Part shown: positions 207 through 22,751 of the stretch, one piece after another
Position numbering within the stretch: the stretch's first letter is position 1
How the letters are laid out: each line of letters opens with the position of its first letter
Assembly (NCBI RefSeq): GCF_055900595.2
Contig: NZ_CM148325.1
Length of the DNA stretch: 64,000 nt
Reading direction: 5' to 3' (one strand)
Program-made: the position numbers and the translations under genes
Notes under the pieces: generated by a model
Told to the model about the DNA's origin: nothing
Seen by the model: the letters and a program-made list of their open reading frames with translations, nothing else
Database searches by the model: none

Positions 207-680
207 CTACTCATCCGTACAACCCAGCCCCCGGCGCTGAACCACTTCACTGGCAAACGTAGCTCCGGTTTTTTTCATTATTCCTTTTTGTATTTTTTGC
301 AGCGCGGGAAATGAGATTCTCCTGCATGAATCCTCTTCCCATATATCACCAGTTACAGGGCTAACTGAAAATAGTCCCCACACATCTGTCGCTCCGGCGG
401 AAGGAGAATCATAACCTACCCCAAAACTAAAATACCCAGGATGATACAGGTTACCTTTTTTATCTTTCAGAGAACCGTCAAGAAAAAACCCAGACAATTC
501 CACATTATATTTTTCATTTTTTAGTGAAAAAACCAATAATGCCTGCGCCTGTATTTCAGTAAGACCTGACTGGTTAACAGTCGTTAGATCAAACCGCGGC
601 ACATTCCTGATAAGAATTTCAGCACAACAATTCACGGACACGACCATGAAAAGCAATACTGATATTAATTTACAGGACAT
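207..680 (-). CDS. Putative T6SS immunity protein (N-terminal signal peptide or membrane anchor), cognate to the upstream effector candidate
   Basis: 157-aa ORF whose start overlaps the stop of the 665-1135 ORF by 16 nt. N-terminal hydrophobic stretch LISVLLFMVVSVNCCA. AT-rich relative to the flanking T6SS core. No recognisable catalytic motif. Confidence 0.45.
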   Translation of the reverse strand: MSCKLISVLLFMVVSVNCCAEILIRNVPRFDLTTVNQSGLTEIQAQALLVFSLKNEKYNVELSGFFLDGSLKDKKGNLYHPGYFSFGVGYDSPSAGATDVWGLFSVSPVTGDIWEEDSCRRISFPALQKIQKGIMKKTGATFASEVVQRRGLGCTDE

Positions 681-1135
681 GTTATTCTCCGCTTAACCAT
701 ATTAATCACCCCCACTAACTCACTAGCATAACCGGTATGGCCGCCATTACTGTTTTTACCTGAATTAAAACCAGAATCAATCAATGCCTGCGCAAATTGC
801 TCCGGAGATTTTTTATTTCTGACCGCATTACCAAATCGGATTGCAAAGGACTTTCCGCTAGTTGAAAAAGAGGTATAAGTGGCAACCCACACTTGATTAC
901 TCCCCAGCGGGTGAACCTGTCCTGACTGTAAAGGTGCCGGACCATGCATGGAAAAGTAGTTATTGTATTCTGTCGCGATTCTACCCTGCCCGTAAAAGGA
1001 CTCCTTTGCAGCAAGCCCCAGGATATTTTCCACAGGCACATCAAGTTGCTTAGCGATTAATTCACATTCTTTCAGATATTGCTGTACAAACCTGACTGCA
1101 CCAGTGTTATTACAGGCTTTATCATAAGACCCCAT
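665..1135 (-). CDS. Putative T6SS peptidoglycan hydrolase effector with FlgJ-like N-acetylglucosaminidase (GH73-like) domain
   Basis: 156-aa ORF with no signal peptide. LGLAAKESFYGQG resembles the AQAALESGWG motif of the FlgJ glucosaminidase domain, and YTSF...FAQALIDSGF resembles the downstream conserved block. Sits directly after tagF-like at the 3' end of the T6SS operon. Confidence 0.5.
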   Translation of the reverse strand: MGSYDKACNNTGAVRFVQQYLKECELIAKQLDVPVENILGLAAKESFYGQGRIATEYNNYFSMHGPAPLQSGQVHPLGSNQVWVATYTSFSTSGKSFAIRFGNAVRNKKSPEQFAQALIDSGFNSGKNSNGGHTGYASELVGVINMVKRRITCPVN

Positions 1136-1162: not shown

Positions 1163-1933
1163 TTAATGCGGCCGGATATCCAGCCGCAACGCATCCACAT
1201 ACCGCCCCTCGCTGTTCTGCTGCCAGAACCAGCCCTGCCCCTGCTGCGCCTGCGTCAGCATTTTGTCCGGCCAGCCCGGCCACGGCAGGTGGCGCACACC
1301 GGGCAGTTCCACTACCGGCACGTCCGGCAGGCCGGTGAGTTCCCGGCTACGCTGCGGTACACGTCGTAAGCCGCGTAGCCACTGCGCCCAGCGCGGCCCC
1401 GGTCGCCACATCGCCCAGAGCTGGTCTGTCTGCTCCGCCAGTCGACCGCAGCGTTCTGTCTGTGGTGAGACATGAGCTGCCGTCAACTGCGCCAGCCAGT
1501 ACAGCCAGCCCTGTGTGTCATCCAGGCTCTCTTCCAGCCATTCCCGCCCGACACGCTGGTAAATCACCAGTGGCCACGGCCTGCCCGTACTGTCACGCGA
1601 GGCGGTCAGCACCCCGGTCAGCCACTCATCGCGCCCGCCAATGGGGAGAAATCCCGGCGACAGCACAAAACTCCACGGCAATGGGTGGTGCTCCGGTAGT
1701 GCCGTTTTCTCACGTGGTGACAGGTGCATCCAGCCGTCATTTGTTCCGGCCTTCTCGGCATCCGCGCCGTCCGGCACCACGATATGCCGCCCCTGTCCCA
1801 GCCACGTCTGCTGGTTCAGCCACGCCTGCCACACCTGCCCTTCGTTCGCGCTCACCCGCCAGCGCACGTAGTCCCGCTGGTCCGGCAGTCTGCCGAACAT
1901 CGCCGGAGCCGATACCTCTGCCCGGCGCATCAC
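1163..1933 (-). CDS. tagF: T6SS-associated protein, TagF-like (ImpM/DUF2094 type; position equivalent to SciT of Salmonella SPI-6)
   Basis: 256-aa ORF; start overlaps the tssM stop (translational coupling). Call rests on gene order after tssM and on size; family assignment is from memory, not motif-verified. Confidence 0.5.
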   Translation of the reverse strand: MMRRAEVSAPAMFGRLPDQRDYVRWRVSANEGQVWQAWLNQQTWLGQGRHIVVPDGADAEKAGTNDGWMHLSPREKTALPEHHPLPWSFVLSPGFLPIGGRDEWLTGVLTASRDSTGRPWPLVIYQRVGREWLEESLDDTQGWLYWLAQLTAAHVSPQTERCGRLAEQTDQLWAMWRPGPRWAQWLRGLRRVPQRSRELTGLPDVPVVELPGVRHLPWPGWPDKMLTQAQQGQGWFWQQNSEGRYVDALRLDIRPH

Positions 1934-4900
1934 AGCGCTCGCTCCGGGCAGGCGAAGCGTTGCAATAGCCCGCGGTTCACCGGGTCAAAATCCCGTCCGG
2001 CGGTGATTTCCAGCACCACCCGCCGCCCGTCAAAACTGTACTCCACCTGCTGTGTTCCCCGTACCACCGTCTCCTGCGCGTTACCCGCATCCAGCAGGTG
2101 AAACAGCGCCCATGGCCCGTTAGTCAGCAACGTCGAGGTGTCCTGGCGGATGCGCGGGCTGGCGGTGATTTCCGCCATTGAGCCGTTGCGCGGCCCCGGC
2201 CAGTTCACTTTCAGCGGCCTGACCGGGCCGTGAGCGTAGCGAAGCACCTGGCCGTCAATGTCAATCACCAGTTCGGTGATGGCAGGGTCCATATCCACCA
2301 CCCGCACCTGCATCGCCCAGGAAAACTTTTTCCCGCCTTCCCCATTAAAAAAAACGCTGCGGATCTGTTTCGCCTCCTGAAACGGTGTCAGGTCCGGCCC
2401 AAGCAACGTCATGTTGCCTTCGGTCGGTTTGTAGCGCCACGGGTTGCTGGCGGTGTCCGCCAGTGGGGCCAGTTGCTTCGTCCAGAACGCATCCAGCACG
2501 CCGCCGCTGGCAAAGATATGGTTAAAATCGTCCGCGCTGACTTCCTGCGGGCTGTCGGTGAAGGGGTAGCGCCCGTCGATGGCGTCGCGGCACTCATCAC
2601 CGATCACCGCTTCCATCTGCGCGTTCAGCACTTCACCGGTGCCGGCGTTGATTTTTCGCGTTCCCTGCTGCGTGAGATCCAGCAGAATATTTTTCAGTGG
2701 CGCGGGCAGTTTTGCCGCCTCCAATTGCAGTTTATCCGCCGCAGAAATGCGGCCAGGTAATGTGCTCGCTGCCAGTGCACTATCAGCGATGGTGAGCTGG
2801 GTGTAATACTCATTGAGCATCGTCAGCAGCGAATTTAACTGCGGCGCGCCGCCGCCCTGCCCGCTGTCTGTCCGCCCGGAAACCACTTCCCGCAAGGCGG
2901 CGAAACGGTCATCCACCAGTGATTTCTCTAGCCGCTCTTCCGGGTGGATGTCCTGCAATAGCTTTGCCGTCTGCACTGCTTTTCCCACATTGCCGGAGAG
3001 CCGGTCCTGCGTGCGCTGGGCCATCTGCTTTTGTCTGGCCTGCGCATCCAGCGGCGGCACCAGCGTGGTCTGCTCCACCACCGCTTTACTCAGGCGCATC
3101 AGCGGGGAATCCGGCGAGGCCAGGGTACGCAGCACCTGAAGGTCATACGCCAGCCCGGGACTGCCGTCTTCCCCGGCACTGTTGATGCTGTGAATACTGG
3201 CCAGAAAATCCTGCCAGCGGCGGGCATATTCAGCCAGGTACAGGCGGCGTACCTCACGGGTAACCGGGAGTTCCTGCCCCGGCAACTGGCTCATCACAAT
3301 ATCCGTCGTTTTTTTTTGCGTGTTTTCCCGGCCCATCACCCAGGCGTCGTCCGCTGATGCGGCTGCGACAAACTCCGACAGCCGTTTGTCGAACAGTTCC
3401 CGGTAGCCTTCGCGAGTGAAGATGCCGGGCACGCCCCGATCCAGCGGCGCGCCATCCGTGCGGACAAAAACCGTTCCCGCATCCGCGCCCACAGCGCGAA
3501 CCAGCGAAAACTCCTGCGGTGCTTCGCTCTCCATGGAAGCCAGGGCTCGAGTGTAGATACGCTCGGTGCTGGTATGGCCGTCAAGGAAAGCTCGCGCCTG
3601 GCGGATCAGCCCCTCATCTTTTTCCCAGGGCAAATGCACCACGCGGCTGCCGTCAAACAGGGCATCGATATGCTCCAGCACGGCGGCGCGACCGCCGAAC
3701 TCCGCCACGCTGTCGCGGTTGCCCAGGTCGTTCAGCACCCAGGCGTGGATCTCCGCCGCGTTGTATTTATCCTCGTGGTCCTTATCGAGGTTCAGCAACA
3801 GATAAACATGCAGGGCGTCATAGGCGGCTTTGCTGTCCTGACGCGCAATCGCATCCGAAAGCACGTATTCCATGCGTTTCACCAGCGGTGGCAGCAGTAA
3901 CTGGTCCAGCAGACGGTCATACAGGGATGCGACGCTCTCCATCACCGGCGGAACGCTGTAAAGACCATAACACCAGGCCAGCGGCGGCGAGTCCGGGTCC
4001 AGTCCCGGCCATGCAGAGAGCGCCCGTGCCTGGTTCAGCAGGGCCGGAACAGGCTGCATAGCAGGTTTTCCGGTATAGGCTTTGACATCACCATCCAGTT
4101 GGGTCGTCCGGCTGGCGATTTCATTCAGATAACCGCTGTTCCCCTGCTGGCTACCCTGCATGCCCTGCCACAACCAGAAAGCCAGCGCCAGTACCAGCAG
4201 ATGCCCGCCAGTACGCAGCAGGCGATAACGCCAGGCCCATTGAAGATTCGGCTCCACCAGGTGCGCTTCGCGGAAGATAAACTGCGTCAGTAGATCGTGC
4301 AGGAAATAGCTGCGGTTGCCGTCCGGCAGGGTATGGGATGGGGAATCAGCCTTCCCTTTGATCGCCCGGACAAAACGCTGCCAGATGCCCGACTGGTCAG
4401 CCACGGCGTCTGCCTGCGCCTGCGCGGCGCTGGTAAAAAATACGCCGCGCAGGGTGTTGTTAAGCTGGGTGGCGTCAAATTTTGAGTCGAGGAAAATCTG
4501 CTCAATGGCTTCCAGCAGCGGCGCACCCAGCGCGGCAAATTCACGCGGGAAGCGGTAGAGCCGCTGGCGGCTTTGAAGGTCGTACTCTTCCTGCAACCGG
4601 GTATCCAGCCCCTGATCCAGCCGCAGCGTCAGGTTTGCCAGTTCCCGGCCACAGAGCGCATGCAGCGACTGCGGATCGCTGGCGTGACGCCTGCGGCTGT
4701 AAGGCAGGGTGAAGCCCCAAACCTGGGCGCGCAGGTGGCTGGTCAGCCCGTGGAAATACTCCGTAAAGCCCGGCAGCAGATCCATTTTGGTGACGACCAG
4801 ATAGACCGGAAAACGAATACCCAGCGTCTCCCGCAGTTCCGCCAGCCGCGCACGCAGGGCCGCACAGGCAGCCAGTCGTTCCGCCGGGGACTGCGCGGTC

Positions 4901-5796
4901 AGATCCGCCACGTTCAGCGTCAGGATCACACCGTTGAGCGGTGCGCCAGGGCGGTGCTTACGCAGCAGCCCAAGAAACCCCTGCCACTCCCCGGCGTTAC
5001 GCTGAGTCGCGCTGATTTCGCCGCCGTCATCGTGGCGGGCATAGCGCCCGGCGGTATCGATGAGTACAGCCTCGTTGGTGAACCACCAGTCACAGTGCAG
5101 CGTGCCGCCGCCCGGCACGGTGAGGATATGCGCGGTCTGCTCCATCTGCTCCGCCAGCGGAAACTGTAGCCCGGTGTTAAGTAGCGCGGTGGTTTTGCCA
5201 TCGCCGGGGCTGCCGATAACCATAAACCACGGCAGTTCGTACAGGAAGCGCTTCCCTTCCAGGACCTTACGCCAGCCGGGCAGGTCCACCCGCAGTTGTT
5301 TCAGTTGCCGGATGGCACGGGTGACAATATGGCTGACCGTGCGCAGGTCGGCTTTAATTTCCCCGGCCACCGGCACGTCTTCCCCGCGCGGATGCAGGAA
5401 ACGGCGCAGCAGTTGTTCATCCAGGCGCAGCGCCCGCCACAGTCGGTACAGGCCATAAAGCGCATAAGTCAGCAGGATCAGGCCGATAAGCGTCAGACGC
5501 AGCCACAGCGGCGCAAACGGGCGAACGTCACCGAAGGCCAGCAGGGGTGAAACAAAACCGATGACCAGGCACAGAACCGTTACGCCAATGATGCTCATCG
5601 ACCAGTTCACCAGCCACAGGGCGAGGAACATCAGTAACAGAACGATGGTGACTACCCGGCTCCCCACAGATGCCAGCGGATGCAGGGTATCAAACGCCAC
5701 CAGCGGCCCGATAAACCAGACCAGCAACGCCAGCATCACCACGCCGACAACGGCCAGCGCGCGGCGGGAAAACAGCATACTGAGAAATTTTTGCAT
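1930..5796 (-). CDS. tssM: T6SS membrane complex protein TssM (IcmF family)
   Basis: 1288-aa ORF with N-terminal transmembrane helices, Walker A motif GSPGDGKTT, and a large C-terminal periplasmic region. Coupled to the upstream and downstream genes. Confidence 0.9.
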   Translation of the reverse strand: MQKFLSMLFSRRALAVVGVVMLALLVWFIGPLVAFDTLHPLASVGSRVVTIVLLLMFLALWLVNWSMSIIGVTVLCLVIGFVSPLLAFGDVRPFAPLWLRLTLIGLILLTYALYGLYRLWRALRLDEQLLRRFLHPRGEDVPVAGEIKADLRTVSHIVTRAIRQLKQLRVDLPGWRKVLEGKRFLYELPWFMVIGSPGDGKTTALLNTGLQFPLAEQMEQTAHILTVPGGGTLHCDWWFTNEAVLIDTAGRYARHDDGGEISATQRNAGEWQGFLGLLRKHRPGAPLNGVILTLNVADLTAQSPAERLAACAALRARLAELRETLGIRFPVYLVVTKMDLLPGFTEYFHGLTSHLRAQVWGFTLPYSRRRHASDPQSLHALCGRELANLTLRLDQGLDTRLQEEYDLQSRQRLYRFPREFAALGAPLLEAIEQIFLDSKFDATQLNNTLRGVFFTSAAQAQADAVADQSGIWQRFVRAIKGKADSPSHTLPDGNRSYFLHDLLTQFIFREAHLVEPNLQWAWRYRLLRTGGHLLVLALAFWLWQGMQGSQQGNSGYLNEIASRTTQLDGDVKAYTGKPAMQPVPALLNQARALSAWPGLDPDSPPLAWCYGLYSVPPVMESVASLYDRLLDQLLLPPLVKRMEYVLSDAIARQDSKAAYDALHVYLLLNLDKDHEDKYNAAEIHAWVLNDLGNRDSVAEFGGRAAVLEHIDALFDGSRVVHLPWEKDEGLIRQARAFLDGHTSTERIYTRALASMESEAPQEFSLVRAVGADAGTVFVRTDGAPLDRGVPGIFTREGYRELFDKRLSEFVAAASADDAWVMGRENTQKKTTDIVMSQLPGQELPVTREVRRLYLAEYARRWQDFLASIHSINSAGEDGSPGLAYDLQVLRTLASPDSPLMRLSKAVVEQTTLVPPLDAQARQKQMAQRTQDRLSGNVGKAVQTAKLLQDIHPEERLEKSLVDDRFAALREVVSGRTDSGQGGGAPQLNSLLTMLNEYYTQLTIADSALAASTLPGRISAADKLQLEAAKLPAPLKNILLDLTQQGTRKINAGTGEVLNAQMEAVIGDECRDAIDGRYPFTDSPQEVSADDFNHIFASGGVLDAFWTKQLAPLADTASNPWRYKPTEGNMTLLGPDLTPFQEAKQIRSVFFNGEGGKKFSWAMQVRVVDMDPAITELVIDIDGQVLRYAHGPVRPLKVNWPGPRNGSMAEITASPRIRQDTSTLLTNGPWALFHLLDAGNAQETVVRGTQQVEYSFDGRRVVLEITAGRDFDPVNRGLLQRFACPERAL

Positions 5797-6083
5797 TATT
5801 GTTCAGAACTCCATGCGAGAATCAGTAATAGCAAAATGCCGCAAGCTGAAAAAATCCTTCCAGTACGGGCTACTGAAAGAAAATAAAGAGCAATCTGAAC
5901 AATTATCAAAATAAAATAAATCAACATTTTGATTATTTCTCTGTTCCCATTTCCCTGAGGCAACGTTGTCATTGAAGGATCCATATCCTGCATCCATTGA
6001 TACTCATTCCCGGAAAAAAGCATGATGATGATCAGACCCATAATGAATAACAACCATCCTGATATCTGAATTATTCTTCTCAC
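5796..6083 (-). CDS. Small predicted 3-TM inner-membrane protein of unknown function (SciR-position gene)
   Basis: 95-aa ORF with three hydrophobic segments (IIQISGWLLFIMGLIIIMLF, MLIYFILIIVQIALYFL, IFSACGILLLLILAW). Its stop overlaps the tssM start. Strongly AT-rich. Confidence 0.45.
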   Translation of the reverse strand: MRRIIQISGWLLFIMGLIIIMLFSGNEYQWMQDMDPSMTTLPQGNGNREIIKMLIYFILIIVQIALYFLSVARTGRIFSACGILLLLILAWSSEQ

Positions 6084-6091
6084 GAAGACTC

Positions 6092-6766
6092 CTAATGGGC
6101 GATGAGTAAATTAGAGAAATGCAACCAGTTGTTGACAATAAAATTGCCATAGCTGGTATCTTCCTTTATTTTCTCCAGAGTAAGCGACATACCCCGGTTA
6201 TAACGGGCACCAATAATTCTTATCTGCTCTTTCGTCAGGTGTGGTAAGGAGGACTGAAATTCATCTCTTTCAGCTAATTGATAAAGATGTCTGGCCACAA
6301 GTTGAATATTAAAAATATCATGCTGGAGGCAATTTGCCAGTTCACGCAATTGAGAGGTATCCATTTTTGACTCATCAAGCCCAAGCGTTCTGGCTGCGGT
6401 TCGCAATTGCATACTCACTGCACCAAAAGATGTTTTTTCTGGTCTCGAAGTTATTGTGATATGTTCATCAATCCACTCAGGCCCACTCCAGTCAATAGTC
6501 CGAGCATCAAATGCCAGCATATCTACAATACTGGGATCCCCCCCGACTTCTATCCAACACACACCTGCCAGTAAAGGTGCTGGCAAATTATATGTATTGG
6601 CAGCCGATGTTATCAGAAGATGGTTATGTTTTACCCAGCCATCTTTGAAATAACGCCCAAACGGTACACCACCGCCCCATTTTTTTGGCGCTAATTTCCA
6701 GAAAAGAAATTCGGTCACGCCCCATACCGGTGAATGATTCGATGCATTGCAGTCCAGATTATTCAT
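6092..6766 (-). CDS. Hypothetical protein with lysozyme/lytic-transglycosylase-like motifs (SciQ-position gene); candidate peptidoglycan-active accessory or effector
   Basis: ORF 6092-6775. ATG at 6766 has GGAG 8 nt upstream; an alternative GTG at 6775 overlaps the tssL stop. Motif series WIEVGG ... GAVSMQL ... GARYNRG is reminiscent of SLT-domain E / GLMQ / AYNxG motifs but with atypical spacing. No signal peptide. AT-rich. Confidence 0.4.
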   Translation of the reverse strand: MNNLDCNASNHSPVWGVTEFLFWKLAPKKWGGGVPFGRYFKDGWVKHNHLLITSAANTYNLPAPLLAGVCWIEVGGDPSIVDMLAFDARTIDWSGPEWIDEHITITSRPEKTSFGAVSMQLRTAARTLGLDESKMDTSQLRELANCLQHDIFNIQLVARHLYQLAERDEFQSSLPHLTKEQIRIIGARYNRGMSLTLEKIKEDTSYGNFIVNNWLHFSNLLIAH

Positions 6767-6771
6767 TTTTC

Positions 6772-8088
6772 TCACTCCACCACCAGAATTTCCACCCGAC
6801 GGTTCTGCGCCCGTCCGGTTTTAGTGCTGTTATCGGCCACCGGTACGGTATCTCCTTTCCCGACGACCCGAATCCGGCTGACCGGAACACCACCGGACGT
6901 CAGCAGTGAAGCCACTTCCGTCGCCCGTTTTTCCGACAACACCTGGTTGGAGGGGAATTCAGCGGAGTGGATCGGCTGACTGTCGGTGTGTCCGGTCACC
7001 GTCACCGCGCCGCCCACACGCGCAATCTCTCGCGCGGCCTTATCAATCACCGGGCTTAGCGCATCATTCACGGTTTTCTGCCCTGGTATAAACATCGTAT
7101 CGCCACGAAAGATTACACGGCTGTGATGGTCATCTTCCTCCACCGTCAGCAGGCCACGGGCGATTTCGTTCGCCAGCAGGATTTTCAGCCGCAGTTTATG
7201 CACTGGAACGGGTGGCGGCGGTAGATTTTTACCAATGGCGTCGATACGCTGTTGTACGGTTTCGATAGCGAGGTTCATCCGGTGGCTGTAAAGGCCAAAC
7301 AGCGTCAGCATCACCAGCAGGGCGATTCCGGCACTCAGCCAGACCGGCACGCGGCGCATCCGTCGCATTCGCCCACTGACGGCACCGGCAAAACCCGGCG
7401 AGAGCGTCGGCGTGATCGGATCGCGACGCTGGACCAGTTGAGTCAGCAGTTGCTGACGAATATCGTCCAGTTGTTTACGTCCGTCAGGCCGTACACTGTA
7501 GCGGCCTTCAAAACCCAGCCCCAGAATGTGGTAAATGATCTCCAGTACATCGTTGTGCTCCTGGAAGCTTGCGGCCAGACGCCCAATTATCTGAAACAGC
7601 TTGATGCCGCCTTCACTTTCGCCATGAAAAGTGACCAGCAGGCTTTTTCCAGCCCAGACACCGCGCCGCCCCCAGGTGGTGTTGTTGGCGGCTTCGTCCA
7701 GCGAAGTGCATAGGCAATAACGCACAGCCAGCACATGTTCGCGGCGAAGGTTTGCCTGATCGCATAACGTCTGATATCGACGAACTTCACGCTCCAGTAG
7801 GGCACGATAATGTTCGACAAAACCAGGGGATAGTTCACGGGGCATTTGCGCCAGCGCGCACAGCAGAGGGCTTGCCGCCGCTAAAAGGGGATTCACGGCA
7901 GCGGTGATTTCAGCCAGCCGGATCTTCACATCCGGGCCGTCTTCAACCACCACCTTTATATCTTCCCTGCGAAGGTTGTCCTGTATTGCCGTATCGTAAC
8001 CGTCACTGTCGGGCAGTTTTACTCCCCCGGCTGATGGCTGGAAGGGCAGGGTATTCGCCGCAGGCGGCGTCAGGATCTCATCGGTCAT
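6772..8088 (-). CDS. tssL: T6SS membrane protein TssL (DotU-like) with C-terminal OmpA/MotB-like peptidoglycan-binding domain
   Basis: 438-aa ORF with a DotU-like N-terminal region, one TM segment (VWLSAGIALLVMLTLFGLY), and a C-terminal OmpA-like region (TVTGHTDSQP...SEKRA...NRRVEI). Overlaps the tssK stop. Confidence 0.85.
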   Translation of the reverse strand: MTDEILTPPAANTLPFQPSAGGVKLPDSDGYDTAIQDNLRREDIKVVVEDGPDVKIRLAEITAAVNPLLAAASPLLCALAQMPRELSPGFVEHYRALLEREVRRYQTLCDQANLRREHVLAVRYCLCTSLDEAANNTTWGRRGVWAGKSLLVTFHGESEGGIKLFQIIGRLAASFQEHNDVLEIIYHILGLGFEGRYSVRPDGRKQLDDIRQQLLTQLVQRRDPITPTLSPGFAGAVSGRMRRMRRVPVWLSAGIALLVMLTLFGLYSHRMNLAIETVQQRIDAIGKNLPPPPVPVHKLRLKILLANEIARGLLTVEEDDHHSRVIFRGDTMFIPGQKTVNDALSPVIDKAAREIARVGGAVTVTGHTDSQPIHSAEFPSNQVLSEKRATEVASLLTSGGVPVSRIRVVGKGDTVPVADNSTKTGRAQNRRVEILVVE

Positions 8089-9428
8089 TTATCGCGAACT
8101 CCCCACAGCTCCAGCTCCAGCCCTGGAAACTCTCCGGCGGTATGCATTGCCATACCACCATAGCGGGCGATATGTTCCCACAACACGCCGTCGCGGCGGA
8201 TGTCGTAATAGATGTAACCGGACTGGAACGGGATCTGACGCGGCGGCACCGGCAATACCTGTAAAGCAAGACCCGGCAGGTGCGAGCGAATCAGTTCCGG
8301 CAGGCGTTCTGACGGCCCTATTTTGGTCTGAGCCGAAAAATGTTGTAGTAAGGTGTCGGCGGACATCTGTGCCTTCACCGCCAATACTAACGAGCTGAAA
8401 TCTGACAGTTCGGTAGGTTCAACCACCGCATTGAGAATACCGTAAATTCCCTCTTCCAGAGGGATTCGCTGCGCCCCACGTATTAGCACAGCATTCAGCA
8501 GATACTGAACCTCGTCCACCACCGATTTCAGCCCGGCATAGGGCGTCAAATGCTTATATTCTTTATATTCTTCCGGACGGCGTGTTTGCGGGCGCACGTA
8601 GGTAGAGAGTTCTCCGGCAAGTGCGCAGAGGTTACGATACAGCACCTCAGGCGACAGCGGTGTTTTCGACATATGGATCAGTAAGGGGCCGAAACGATTA
8701 AGAACTTGCAGAAGCAGGTAATCAGACACTTCCGCCGCTTCATGACCGTGTTTGTCGCTCCCCGTCAATCGTTCCGCCAGTGAATTTGCACGCATTTTTA
8801 TCAGATCGTTAATCCACGATAGCCAGGTACATATCAGCGTACTGGCCTGGTAGTTCGCTACTGGCGGGATCAACTCTTTGTCTATATCGACCCGACCATC
8901 GGGATGCAGCGCCGTGATGCGTGTCAGCGGCAGGCCGATCCACGCGTCTGTCACCGCCTTTTCAGGTAACAGTCGCAAGCGCAGGTGGCTAAGTTGCAGT
9001 AGTTGCGCGCCTCGCCCCAGCGAATTGGCATCACGGATTTCACTTTCATGTACCGAAAAACGTGCCAGTGATTCAGGGTTATTGTCGAAACTGGTTTCTT
9101 CACTGTTCGGCGTGCGTATTGGCACAGCCAGATAAATCAACTGGTTAAGATGCTCAGGAAGGATGGTCAGAGGCGGCGGGAGTGGTGTGTGCCCCGGCGC
9201 ATTAAAAGGTGTACCGTCAGCAAATACCCCGGAAGCCTTCGTTAGTACCAGCTTTCCGATGTTCAGCGCCTCACTACCAATACCATACTCATTGAAGCCC
9301 CAGAAAAAAGGTGAAAGAGGCAAACTGCGATAATGAATGACATGTTCCAGATAGCGTTCCTGCTGCTGAAACATCTGTGGCAGCAAAAATTGTCCTTCAC
9401 TCCAGACCACCCGGTTATTCCAACTCAT
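8085..9428 (-). CDS. tssK: T6SS baseplate protein TssK
   Basis: 447-aa ORF, translationally coupled to tssJ upstream and tssL downstream; size and position typical of TssK. Confidence 0.8.
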   Translation of the reverse strand: MSWNNRVVWSEGQFLLPQMFQQQERYLEHVIHYRSLPLSPFFWGFNEYGIGSEALNIGKLVLTKASGVFADGTPFNAPGHTPLPPPLTILPEHLNQLIYLAVPIRTPNSEETSFDNNPESLARFSVHESEIRDANSLGRGAQLLQLSHLRLRLLPEKAVTDAWIGLPLTRITALHPDGRVDIDKELIPPVANYQASTLICTWLSWINDLIKMRANSLAERLTGSDKHGHEAAEVSDYLLLQVLNRFGPLLIHMSKTPLSPEVLYRNLCALAGELSTYVRPQTRRPEEYKEYKHLTPYAGLKSVVDEVQYLLNAVLIRGAQRIPLEEGIYGILNAVVEPTELSDFSSLVLAVKAQMSADTLLQHFSAQTKIGPSERLPELIRSHLPGLALQVLPVPPRQIPFQSGYIYYDIRRDGVLWEHIARYGGMAMHTAGEFPGLELELWGVRDK

Positions 9429-9431
9429 AAT

Positions 9432-9965
9432 TTACTCATCCCGTTCTTTAATCACTATGGCGCTTTGCTCTATGCCTGCATCCAGTTCGACTTTTTTCTT
9501 TGGCATAAAGCGGCTGTACCAACTTTTTTCCGGTGGATCAGGAATTTTATATGTAGCCCGCCAGACCGATTTTCCCAGATTGCGGTATCCGGCGAGGATC
9601 CCCAGCGTGGTGGTTTCCTTATTGAGGGAGCGGCGCAATTTTTTCTCCTCGCCCGGACGCAGAATAAAGCTGTCGCGGTGGAGTAAATCATCAGCAAGAA
9701 CAGCCTTGTCATTGTCCTGAAGGGACCACCAGTCCGCCGCCGTGAAAGCTGCATCATTTTTCAGTTCATAAACGCGTATCTCTATGGGCGCGGCTTTTTT
9801 CTGATTGTCAGGATTCACCTTATCGGAAGCCTTCATCACCAGATCGAGTCTTTGTGACATCAGGTCCGGCACGTCGTCGCTGTCAATGCTGCACCCGGAA
9901 AGCAGGCAGACAAAAGACAAAGCTACCGCACATAACCACCCACCGGGGTTACGCCATTTATTCAC
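9432..9965 (-). CDS. tssJ: T6SS outer-membrane lipoprotein TssJ
   Basis: Long ORF 9432-10091 trimmed to a GTG at 9965 that has an AAGGA Shine-Dalgarno upstream. This gives a lipoprotein signal peptide ending in the lipobox LLSGC. 4 nt before tssK. Confidence 0.7.
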   Translation of the reverse strand: MNKWRNPGGWLCAVALSFVCLLSGCSIDSDDVPDLMSQRLDLVMKASDKVNPDNQKKAAPIEIRVYELKNDAAFTAADWWSLQDNDKAVLADDLLHRDSFILRPGEEKKLRRSLNKETTTLGILAGYRNLGKSVWRATYKIPDPPEKSWYSRFMPKKKVELDAGIEQSAIVIKERDE

Positions 9966-9991
9966 TGTAATTTCCTTTAAAATCAAATGAT

Positions 9992-10021
9992 AAAAACCGG
10001 CCTGGCTATTTGCCGGGCCGG
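9992..10021 (-). terminator. Intrinsic terminator/attenuator hairpin immediately downstream of hcp
   Basis: Minus-strand reading gives CCGGCCCGGCAAATAGCCAGGCCGG followed by TTTTTATCATTT, i.e. a GC-rich stem then a U-tract, between the hcp stop and the tssJ start. Confidence 0.6.
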
Positions 10022-10032
10022 AAAAGTACCGC

Positions 10033-10518
10033 TTAAATTTCTTTATTGGCCTTGAAGTCGTAGCCTGCGGTGATGGTGCCGCCGCTGCCACCTTGCTGGT
10101 TTTGCACCACGTATTCCTGCTTCACGGTGCTGAAAGAGAGTTCGACTGTTTCACGGGAGGCAATTTCACCTTCTTTACTGCCGCTGGGCGATACAACCGC
10201 CACAATCAGGTCAGTGAAGGTATATTTGAGATATTCCAGCGGATTGCCGCCTGCTTTACGCATGGTCAGCACAGCTTTCGGAATGTGTTTGCCAGAGGCG
10301 CAGTACTTGAACAGGTTCGGACTGGCGCGATCGATATAGTGGTCAAAGTCCAGGTTAGTCACGGAGACTTTACCGGATCCCAGACCGCTGCCCGCGTGCA
10401 TGGTGGATTCCTGGTGGATATTCCAGCGCCAGCTCAGCACCTCAATTTCATTTTTATGTTTGTCATCCATTGACTCGCCGTCAATACCGTCAATTTTCAG
10501 AAAAATGTCATAAGCCAT
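10033..10518 (-). CDS. hcp: T6SS tube protein Hcp
   Basis: ORF 10033-10524; the second ATG (10518) has better Shine-Dalgarno spacing and gives MAYDIFLKIDGIDG..., about 161 aa, typical Hcp size and sequence character. Confidence 0.9.
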   Translation of the reverse strand: MAYDIFLKIDGIDGESMDDKHKNEIEVLSWRWNIHQESTMHAGSGLGSGKVSVTNLDFDHYIDRASPNLFKYCASGKHIPKAVLTMRKAGGNPLEYLKYTFTDLIVAVVSPSGSKEGEIASRETVELSFSTVKQEYVVQNQQGGSGGTITAGYDFKANKEI

Positions 10519-10753
10519 TTTCATTTCCTTATTTAGAATTACTTAAAAATAACCTCTGATTTATCTGTACATCTGGATACAGGTAAACCATTGCCGTACA
10601 GAACCCCCTCTCCTTAATTTCAGAAGAACAGAAGGCTGTATAATTTCCGGTACTGAAATACCGGGAAGATATTTATTTACCTTATAAATAAATCATCAAA
10701 ACAATAATTTTAGCCCTGCGTTTCTCACTCAATATATTCACAAAATAAATAAA

Positions 10754-12268
10754 TTAGGCATTACCCTGTTTTACTGACGGCAGTTTTGTGACCAGGCGCA
10801 GCGACCCCGTTAATCCCTCAAGCTGAAAATGCGGGCGCAGGAAGAATTTGGCATCGTAATAACCCGGATTACCTTCCACCTCTTCCACCACCACTTCGGC
10901 AGCTGCTAGTGGGCGACGAGCTTTGGTTTCCTGTGAGGAGTTCACCGGATCGGCATCGACGTAGTTCATGATCCACTCATTGAGCCAGCGCTGCATATCT
11001 TCGCGCTCTTTGAACGAGCCGATCTTGTCGCGCACGATGCATTTGAGGAAGTGTGCAAATCTTGAACAGGCGAACAAATAGGGCAACCGGGCGGAGAGAT
11101 TGGCGTTGGCCGTGGCGTCCGGATCGTAATAATCCTGCGGTTTTTGCAGCGACTGTGCGCCAATAAAGGCGGCATAATCAGAGTTTTTGCGGTGGATCAG
11201 CGGGATAAAACCGTTTTTGGCCAGTTCAGCTTCACGGCGATCAGAGATGGCAATTTCCGTCGGGCATTTCATGTCCACGCCGCCGTCATCGGTCGGGAAG
11301 GTATGACAGGGCAGATTTTCCACCGCGCCACCAGATTCCACACCACGGATCAACGTACACCAACCATAATGTTTGAAAGAACGGTTGATATTTACACCCA
11401 TCGCATAGGCGGCATTGCTCCAGACATATTTGCTGTGATCTGCGCCATCCGCATCTTCTTCAAAATCAAACTCATCGACAGGGTTTGTTTTCGCACCATA
11501 AGGCAAACGGGAGAGAAAACGTGGCATCGTCAGGCCAATGTAGCGAGAATCCTCACTTTTTCGCAGCGAGTTCCACGGTGCGTATTCGAGGTTTTGGGTC
11601 ACGATTTTGGTCAAATCACGCGGGTTAGCCAGTTCCTGCCAGGAGTCCATCTGCAACACTGACGGAGAGGCACCGGCAATAAACGGCGCATGGGCTGAGG
11701 CTGCTACTTTGGCAATGGAACCGAGCAGATCCACATCCGGTGGCGTGTGATCAAAATAATAATCCGCAATAATACAACCGTAAGGTTCTCCACCTAACTG
11801 TCCATATTCAGCTTCATACAGCTTTTTGAACATGGGGCTTTGATCCCAGGCTATCCCTTTGTAACGTTTCATATTTTTCCGCAATTCATCCTTCGAAAGG
11901 TTCATAAAGCGGATTTTTAATTTTTCATCGGTTTCAGTGTTGTAAACCAAATGTTCCATCCCACGCCAGGAGGACTCCAGTTTCTGAAATTCCGGATGAC
12001 TCAGGATGAGTTTGATCTGCTCGGTTAATTTGAAATCAATCTGCTCAATAATCGCAGCAATACTTTTATAAGCGTCGTCACTGACGGTGACGGTATTTGT
12101 CAGAGCCTGTTGGGCCAGCGTCTGAACTGCTGCCTCAACAGCCTTTGCTGCCTGAGGTGTCTTGGGACGGAAGGCTTTATCCAGGAGCGAATCAAATTCA
12201 GTGTCCTGATAGGCAGTGGTTTGCGCAGCAGAGAGATCGCCAGTCGCCAGAAGAGTATCGTTTACCAT
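10754..12268 (-). CDS. tssC: T6SS contractile sheath large subunit TssC
   Basis: 504-aa ORF immediately downstream of tssB; size and position of TssC (VipB). Confidence 0.9.
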   Translation of the reverse strand: MVNDTLLATGDLSAAQTTAYQDTEFDSLLDKAFRPKTPQAAKAVEAAVQTLAQQALTNTVTVSDDAYKSIAAIIEQIDFKLTEQIKLILSHPEFQKLESSWRGMEHLVYNTETDEKLKIRFMNLSKDELRKNMKRYKGIAWDQSPMFKKLYEAEYGQLGGEPYGCIIADYYFDHTPPDVDLLGSIAKVAASAHAPFIAGASPSVLQMDSWQELANPRDLTKIVTQNLEYAPWNSLRKSEDSRYIGLTMPRFLSRLPYGAKTNPVDEFDFEEDADGADHSKYVWSNAAYAMGVNINRSFKHYGWCTLIRGVESGGAVENLPCHTFPTDDGGVDMKCPTEIAISDRREAELAKNGFIPLIHRKNSDYAAFIGAQSLQKPQDYYDPDATANANLSARLPYLFACSRFAHFLKCIVRDKIGSFKEREDMQRWLNEWIMNYVDADPVNSSQETKARRPLAAAEVVVEEVEGNPGYYDAKFFLRPHFQLEGLTGSLRLVTKLPSVKQGNA

Positions 12269-16374: not shown

Positions 16375-17286
16375 ATGAAACCAAATATTACGTGGGAACT
16401 CCAAAAAATACAGGCGCATGGGATCGCCGATAACACAATTTACGCGACTGAAGGAACACAAATTATCTTCACCGTTACCTCTCCCTGGATTCCTGTTTTT
16501 GATGTGAATGATGATGTAAAGATTGCGCTCAGACTGACCCGCCACGAAGAAGCATGGTGGATTATCAATCAGTCTACCGAATATTGCTGTACGGTAAACG
16601 ACCAGATTGTGGAACCTCATCACCGTATGCGTCTGAATGAAGGCGACCTGATAGAATGGGGATTATCTTCATGGTGCCTTGTGCATGGCAATCCATCATC
16701 TCCGAACCTAAGCGCAGTAAAGACATCGCAGACTGCCACCACGTCGGAAACAATAACCGAATATCTGGATCTGGATTGGTTCAGGCAGCAGCATCTGACA
16801 TCACAAAATCCATTCGATATCATTCCTGTTCATGGAGCCTCCTCCACCGGAGAAGATGCGGAAAAAGAAAATGCCCTGACCCGACTTTATCAGGAATACC
16901 GCGAAGCGTTGTTATCTCCCGAACAAGATCTTCATCGCCATGCTGATCCTTTTCCCTTTAACGAAGAACCCTCCTCGCAGGATCTGGATTCATTGCGTGA
17001 CCTGGTCACCGAAGCCGAGACATTGCAGGATATGGTCACTGGCGGGTTAAGCATTGACGCTATTCTCAATGTACTGGATGCCACCGGCGAAGATGAAACT
17101 ATCTGGCCTGTCGAAAACACTCCCCCTGACATCCTGCATTTACTTTCCCCGGAATACGCCCCGGAAACAGCGCATAACACCGTTCTGCCCGACCTGACAC
17201 GCAAAGAGCATCGCATCATTGGCATTGACAGCCATTACCGGATAAACCCGGCACAACACGGAGATACCTCTCATGATAAACAATAA
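16375..17286 (+). CDS. T6SS-associated hypothetical protein, possibly degenerate FHA-domain (TagH/Fha-like); SciA position
   Basis: 303-aa ORF, first gene of the plus operon. N-terminal region has weak FHA-like character (RLNEGDLIEWG); acidic/proline-rich C-terminal half. Assignment is weak. Confidence 0.3.
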   Translation: MKPNITWELQKIQAHGIADNTIYATEGTQIIFTVTSPWIPVFDVNDDVKIALRLTRHEEAWWIINQSTEYCCTVNDQIVEPHHRMRLNEGDLIEWGLSSWCLVHGNPSSPNLSAVKTSQTATTSETITEYLDLDWFRQQHLTSQNPFDIIPVHGASSTGEDAEKENALTRLYQEYREALLSPEQDLHRHADPFPFNEEPSSQDLDSLRDLVTEAETLQDMVTGGLSIDAILNVLDATGEDETIWPVENTPPDILHLLSPEYAPETAHNTVLPDLTRKEHRIIGIDSHYRINPAQHGDTSHDKQ

Positions 17287-22674: not shown

Positions 22675-22751
22675 TGGCGGAACGGACGGGACTCGAACCC
22701 GCGACCCCCTGCGTGACAGGCAGGTATTCTAACCGACTGAACTACCGCTCC
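22675..22751 (-). tRNA. aspV: tRNA-Asp (GUC)
   Basis: 77-nt sequence; reverse complement matches E. coli tRNA-Asp as recalled (GGAGCGGTAGTTCAGTCGGTTAGAATACCTGCCTGTCACGCAGGGGGTCGCGGGTTCGAGTCCCGTCCGTTCCGCCA). Confidence 0.97.

Follow-up and report, generated by a model that had tools for sequence, protein, structure and literature searches.

We analysed a 64,000-nucleotide (nt) stretch of contig NZ_CM148325.1 (assembly GCF_055900595.2; hereafter the window) that carries a type VI secretion system (T6SS) cluster, with tssL at positions 6772–8088. The local gene order is tssJ-tssK-tssL-(cassette)-tssM-tagF, the cassette being two genes for a 224-amino-acid (aa) and a 95-aa protein, and the neighbours all scored above the cut-offs of their models. 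As claimed in an earlier note made from the sequence, the tssL product is 438 aa long: its open reading frame (ORF) exactly fills 6772–8088. It lies on the minus strand, which that note had left unstated, and translation of the plus-strand frame of the interval gave many stops. The tssL ATG overlaps the tssK stop codon in an ATGA junction. This is not a chance ORF: 90 complete E. coli genomes carry the region at ≥ 99% identity, annotated as tssL, long form. Orthologues at ≥ 85% DNA identity are rare in the species, occurring in about 2% of its complete genomes.

The product was described earlier as a DotU domain, one transmembrane (TM) helix and a periplasmic OmpA/MotB-like domain, and this description holds in each part, with both domain models above their curated cut-offs and a single TM-grade segment. 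DotU (PF09850) matched aa 67–269 (E 1.1e-60, 205.3 bits against a gathering threshold of 27), TIGR03349 scored 215 bits (cut-off 89.95), and the cytoplasmic half matched the V. cholerae VCA0115 structure 4v3i with E 1.3e-23. An N-terminal extension of ~ 60 residues precedes the DotU domain. The only TM-grade segment is aa 247–267, with a 19-residue Kyte–Doolittle maximum of 2.08; the basic RMRRMRR stretch on its N-terminal side fits an N-in/C-out topology under the positive-inside rule. C-terminal to the helix, the search with the OmpA-family model PF00691 that the earlier note had proposed as a check returned aa 332–430 (E 2.2e-16, 60.4 bits against a gathering threshold of 27.2). The outcome that the earlier note had named as refuting its claim, a C-terminus unlike OmpA-family models, did not occur. 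TIGR03350, the equivalog-domain model for 'TssL, long form' (type_VI_ompA), aligned aa 300–436 to its positions 1–137 of 137 with 163.8 bits (cut-off 139.8), and the full-length subfamily model NF005999 aligned aa 33–438 to positions 30–432 of 432 with 650.9 bits (cut-off 571). The label 'evolved TssL' used earlier for this protein is borne out, with TIGR03350 above its cut-off and every testable feature of membership present. We regard the architecture, and the identity of the protein as a long-form TssL, as near certain. Coordinates are collected in the table.

Table. Features of the tssL locus, with window positions and the evidence for each
Feature	Positions	Strand	Evidence
tssL, long (evolved/specialized) form, 438 aa + stop	6772..8088	-	ORF translation, Pfam, NCBIfam, RefSeq name in near-identical genomes
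DotU/TssL cytoplasmic domain, aa 67–269, including the TM helix at its end	7282..7890	-	PF09850, 4v3i match
Single TM helix, aa 247–267, preceded by basic cluster RMRRMRR (aa 240–246)	7288..7350	-	Kyte–Doolittle
Periplasmic linker, aa 268–331, with proline run PPPPVPV (aa 290–296)	7096..7287	-	Sequence, between TM helix and OmpA Pfam envelope
OmpA/MotB-like peptidoglycan-binding domain, aa 332–430	6799..7095	-	PF00691; TIGR03350 envelope aa 300–436 = 6781–7191
Predicted peptidoglycan (diaminopimelate) binding motif, GHTD (D369) + N381-x2-L384-S385-x2-R388-A389	6922..6984	-	Motif positions
224-aa lysozyme/soluble lytic transglycosylase (SLT)-fold protein, candidate T6SS cargo effector, separate from the anchor	6092..6766	-	Predicted fold, no signal peptide
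95-aa three-TM protein, candidate cognate immunity protein	5796..6083	-	Hydropathy, pairing with 224-aa homologues
tssK (baseplate), translationally coupled to tssL	8085..9428	-	PF05936 E 2.8e-135, TIGR03353
tssM, inner-membrane partner of TssL	1930..5796	-	TIGR03348 1049.7 bits, IcmF domains

The C-terminal domain carries the residues with which a related domain holds the cell wall. In the crystal structure of the TagL domain of enteroaggregative E. coli (EAEC), diaminopimelate (DAP) is contacted by Asp486, Asn494, Leu497 and Arg501, and cell-wall binding by TagL requires Asn494, Leu497, Ser498, Arg501 and Ala502 (PMC8253398). TssL has a GHTD motif (D369) followed by N381-Q-V-L384-S385-E-K-R388-A389, and its D369, N381, L384, S385, R388 and A389 correspond to TagL D486, N494, L497, S498, R501 and A502; all of the peptidoglycan-binding residues are kept. 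Among solved structures, the domain matched P. aeruginosa TssL1 best (periplasmic domain, 4b62; E 3.7e-25, aa 288–436).

In systems with a short TssL, a separate TagL supplies this domain, and the earlier note had held that no such protein is encoded here. We searched the window together with an overlapping 42-kb stretch of a related genome (E. coli R32_14_1F, L007), which reaches ~ 20 kb past the left edge of the window. With the C-terminal 149 aa of TssL as query, tblastn found no second OmpA-like domain in either, tssL alone scoring, and the annotation of the L007 cluster lists no TagL-, TagN-, TagP- or TagW-type gene; the claim thus stands. The remaining ORFs of the window fit the expected T6SS core families. 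An Atlantibacter cluster (L010) has the other arrangement: a 217-aa, DotU-only short TssL is followed by a 566-aa OmpA-domain protein in the position and with the architecture of TagL. TssL aa 124–271 aligned to the short TssL of that cluster and aa 356–437 to the 566-aa protein, the latter with 48% identity over its OmpA-like domain (BLASTP) and with the binding residues in register. These alignments illustrate directly that, in sequence terms, the long TssL equals a short TssL plus a TagL-type domain. The same two functions are provided in EAEC Sci-1 by a short TssL (SciP) and TagL (SciZ), and the DotU half and the OmpA-like domain each align to the L010 counterparts of these proteins. Sci-1 differs in having TagL as a protein of its own, with three TM helices, which TssL recruits, whereas here both functions reside in one polypeptide with one TM helix.

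The interval 6772–8088 very probably encodes the long-form TssL of an aspV-linked E. coli T6SS, anchoring TssJLM to the wall, and the adjoining gene pair is, as part of the same reading, an independent, horizontally exchanged cassette of effector/immunity type set within the tssJKL-tssM operon. By analogy with other TssL proteins that have been studied, aa 1–246 would lie in the cytoplasm, where the DotU-fold domain would contact TssM and the baseplate. Residues 247–267 would cross the inner membrane once, N-in/C-out, and the proline-containing linker would carry the MotB/OmpA-like domain (aa ~ 300–436) through the periplasm to the sacculus. There D369, N381, L384 and R388 would mediate non-covalent binding of the domain to the meso-DAP stem peptide of peptidoglycan, and the TssJLM complex would thereby be fixed to the cell wall, which is the job of a separate TagL where TssL is short. 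Ten TssL copies were reported in the EAEC membrane complex (PMC8253398), so that anchoring of TssJLM may be multivalent.

Several points weigh against this reading. Between the conserved Asp and the N-x2-LS-x2-RA motif, TssL has 4 more loop residues than the TagL-type protein of Atlantibacter. After TssL1, the nearest relatives of the C-terminal domain are MotB/PomB stator domains, which are also its closest relatives outside the T6SS (PomB, E 2e-14; NCBIfam matches to MotD and MotB). Such stator domains must change conformation before they bind the wall, and wall binding by TssL could, by analogy with these gated relatives, be conditional. The absence of TagL rests on similarity to the TssL OmpA domain and on annotation, over ~ 84 kb of sequence. 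We infer peptidoglycan binding by TssL, and its need for secretion, from homology and from knowledge of the family. The longer loop, together with flagellar stators with gated wall binding (PomB, MotB, MotD and MotS) as the best matches after TssL1, would suit a domain that does not bind peptidoglycan constitutively and serves as a regulated plug of the MotB kind or a protein–protein module, for example in contact with TssM or TssJ. We consider this improbable, since the curated 'long form' model TIGR03350 was matched above its cut-off and the cluster encodes no further wall anchor. MotB and PomB share with TssL the layout of a single TM helix, a linker and an OmpA-like domain; unlike them, the window TssL has no stator function and no MotA partner, its N-terminal domain is DotU, and all Mot models remained below their cut-offs. 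Constitutive wall binding by the TssL domain is the likely mode, with the gated stator relatives as the main caveat.

We then considered the cassette. The lysozyme-like gene placed next to tssL in the earlier note does adjoin it, the 224-aa ORF beginning 5 nt after the tssL stop. The description 'lysozyme-like' held at the level of the predicted fold and failed at the level of sequence, where no model detects the protein: it matched no Pfam or NCBIfam family at E ≤ 0.01, including SLT (PF01464), and no PDB sequence better than E 0.23. About 300 homologues of ~ 220 aa with 55–60% identity are found in gamma- and beta-proteobacteria, and E73 within WIEVGGDP, TSFGxVSxQ and GARYNRG are invariant in the family. 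The AlphaFold2 model, predicted from an alignment of 39 sequences, had a mean predicted local distance difference test score of 79 and a predicted template modelling score of 0.80, with aa 84–117 poorly modelled. Foldseek searches with this model gave Tse3, G-type lysozymes and MltE as top matches, and every top match belonged to the lysozyme superfamily. A sequence scan of the protein found no hydrophobic N-terminus and hence no Sec signal. The 224-aa protein is distinct from the known members of this fold: identity to Tse3/Tge1 (the P. aeruginosa muramidase effector), MltE and Slt70 is only 14–16%, it is half the size of Tse3, and it is paired with a ~ 95-aa polytopic membrane protein, not with a Tsi3-like protein of the periplasm.

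The gene for this partner starts with GTG at 6083, 6 nt downstream of an AGGAG sequence, and its 3′ end overlaps tssM in a TAATG junction. RefSeq starts the same gene at an internal ATG, giving 81 aa (246 nt in the related genomes L001 and L007). Partner homologues in five other genera are 94–102 aa long and include the first TM helix. We regard the 95-aa form as more likely to be correct than the RefSeq call because of the AGGAG sequence 6 nt before the GTG and because of these longer homologues. An alignment of six partner homologues showed that they are homologous across genera and share a conserved loop, Y-x-W-M-x-D-M-D-P-S. The GC content of the 95-aa gene is 36%, and that of the two genes of the pair 36–43%, compared with 58% for tssL and 62% for tssM.

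The slot between tssL and tssM is polymorphic in E. coli. It holds the cassette (5796–6766) in the window, and in other strains a tlde1-domain gene with a small hypothetical gene, putatively for immunity (L002, 7425–8238); the tssL and tssM flanks of the tlde1-carrying E. coli are 92% identical to those of the window. Tlde1/Tldi1 is an established antibacterial T6SS effector/immunity pair. We examined ten contexts of the 224-aa and ~ 95-aa pair. In every one of them the 224-aa homologue is followed by the ~ 95-aa partner; five are linked to a T6SS and five are orphan. The window is one of the T6SS-linked contexts; in the others the pair occupies the same slot of a diverged T6SS cluster with the same layout as the window (L011), lies directly upstream of vgrG in the Atlantibacter cluster with short TssL and TagL, is part of a Paracidovorax PAAR-Rhs island (L009), and in a Salmonella island (L014) stands beside genes for Rap1a, Tae4, glucosaminidase, Tgi2PP and Tlde1 domains, VgrG and PAAR-Rhs. 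The orphan pairs, in Yersinia, Burkholderia, Rhodanobacter, Cronobacter and Massilia, sit among housekeeping genes with no T6SS genes nearby. The pair thus shows T6SS linkage, an adjacent small gene, an enzyme-like protein lacking a Sec signal and a variable slot, as is characteristic of effector/immunity pairs. Because the pairing is constant, the contexts are varied, the slot is polymorphic and the GC content is low, the pair looks like a horizontally exchanged cargo cassette of effector/immunity type that is independent of the kind of TssL.

The earlier note had suggested that the lysozyme-like gene may be functionally connected to the TssL anchor. On that account the 224-aa protein would be dedicated to remodelling the wall: it would open the sacculus locally, making room for the membrane complex to insert, and TssL would then re-anchor the complex. 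Models for such an enzyme are TagX of Acinetobacter, MltE, which TssM recruits in EAEC, and EtgA/VirB1 of other secretion systems. We found no support for the suggested link, as the slot also accommodates a tlde1 pair and the cassette also occurs with a short TssL and TagL and as an orphan, and we consider this explanation improbable. With neither a Sec nor a lipoprotein signal, the 224-aa protein cannot reach its own periplasm unaided. The tlde1 gene and its small neighbour take its place between flanks that are 92% identical, the cassette differs from tssL and tssM in GC content, and a small membrane protein always accompanies the 224-aa gene. The pair is also found among Salmonella effector/immunity pairs and far from T6SS genes, and the top structural neighbour of the enzyme is itself an effector, Tse3. 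In other clusters short TssL and a separate OmpA-domain protein are encoded by adjacent genes, which might point to the 438-aa ORF as an artefactual or recent fusion of a short tssL and an OmpA-family gene (by frameshift or assembly error), but this idea has practically no standing and is refuted by the nearly full-length alignment to NF005999, by the recurrence of the same ORF in 98 complete genomes and by a 58%-identical orthologue of 418 aa, the linker being continuous, without stop or frameshift.

Returning to the cassette as effector/immunity cargo, we tentatively propose, at a probability just short of even, that the pair represents an undescribed, widespread family of T6SS peptidoglycan-targeting effectors with their immunity proteins. 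The tiny polytopic partner with its conserved periplasmic loop (Y-W-M-x-D-M-D-P-S) suggests that the putative enzyme finds its substrate at the membrane face (lipid-linked or nascent glycan, for example) and not in the mature sacculus. In a search that was not exhaustive, we found no published description of the pair in surveys of Salmonella pathogenicity island 6 (SPI-6) effectors or in a structural-bioinformatics paper on T6SS effectors. The lytic-transglycosylase effector of the latter paper is SleB-like and unrelated.

The L007 annotation covers the whole cluster and lists Rhs, a DcrB-like protein, VgrG, a glucosaminidase, a hypothetical protein (Tgi2PP-like; the window copy matches PF21576), TagF and TssM, then two hypothetical proteins, TssL (long form), TssK, TssJ, Hcp, TssC and TssB, and finally ClpV, TagK, TagJ, TssE, TssF, TssG and TssA. 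A tRNA-Asp (GTC) gene at 22675–22751 (minus strand) forms the right border of the T6SS island. We take the ORFs beyond it to be dnaQ and rnhA, the border presumably being the aspV insertion site, and we assume that the gene order resembles that of Salmonella SPI-6. The variable regions of SPI-6 are hot spots for peptidoglycan-targeting effector/immunity modules.

Several further observations concern this island. Downstream of tagF, at 207–1135 (minus strand), a gene for a 156-aa glucosaminidase-domain protein (PF01832, Tge2-like) overlaps one for a 157-aa Tgi2PP-family protein (PF21576); judged from these domains, this is a second predicted peptidoglycan-targeting effector/immunity pair. L001 carries two different hypothetical genes at that position. 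A Tae4/Tai4 amidase effector/immunity pair is present between hcp and tssC in L001 and L002 and absent there from the window (10524–10754, ~ 230 nt). The tssJ ORF at 9432–10091 (minus strand) encodes 219 aa from a GTG. In related genomes RefSeq has a shorter gene here (534 nt, for a 177-aa lipoprotein); the GTG start is probably over-extended, since the longer ORF shares 59 nt with the 3′ end of hcp. A 303-aa protein at 16375–17286 (plus strand) is annotated as TagK in a related genome, its FHA match (20.1 bits) falling short of the threshold of 20.7. The cluster showed no gene for a kinase or phosphatase of the PpkA/PppA type. The cluster is also a mosaic: the left 2.2 kb of the window are 99.9% identical to R32_14_1F, whose TssL is only 94–97% identical at the protein level, and in the tssL region the window shares 99.4% DNA identity with other strains. 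These identities suggest recombination within the T6SS island.

The long-form TssL found here is already known and is correctly named by automated annotation, and there is nothing new in TssL itself. In 116 complete E. coli genomes the Prokaryotic Genome Annotation Pipeline uses 'TssL, long form' as the product name of this gene. In architecture the protein is identical to P. aeruginosa H1-T6SS TssL1 (4b62) and Salmonella SPI-6 TssL, with no difference of substance. A peptidoglycan-binding domain fused to TssL was reportedly described by Aschtgen, Thomas and Cascales in 2010. Reviews cite Salmonella and P. aeruginosa as examples of evolved or specialized TssL, and 'specialized TssL' is the name used in PMC8253398. 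The window TssL is one more orthologue of a well-described way to anchor the T6SS membrane complex to the wall. The lysozyme-fold gene beside it should not be read as anchoring or assembly machinery. It belongs to a conserved cassette that has no family annotation and occurs in E. coli, Salmonella, Atlantibacter, Cronobacter, Yersinia, Burkholderia, Paracidovorax (Acidovorax), Rhodanobacter and Massilia, and that offers a cheap candidate for effector/immunity validation.

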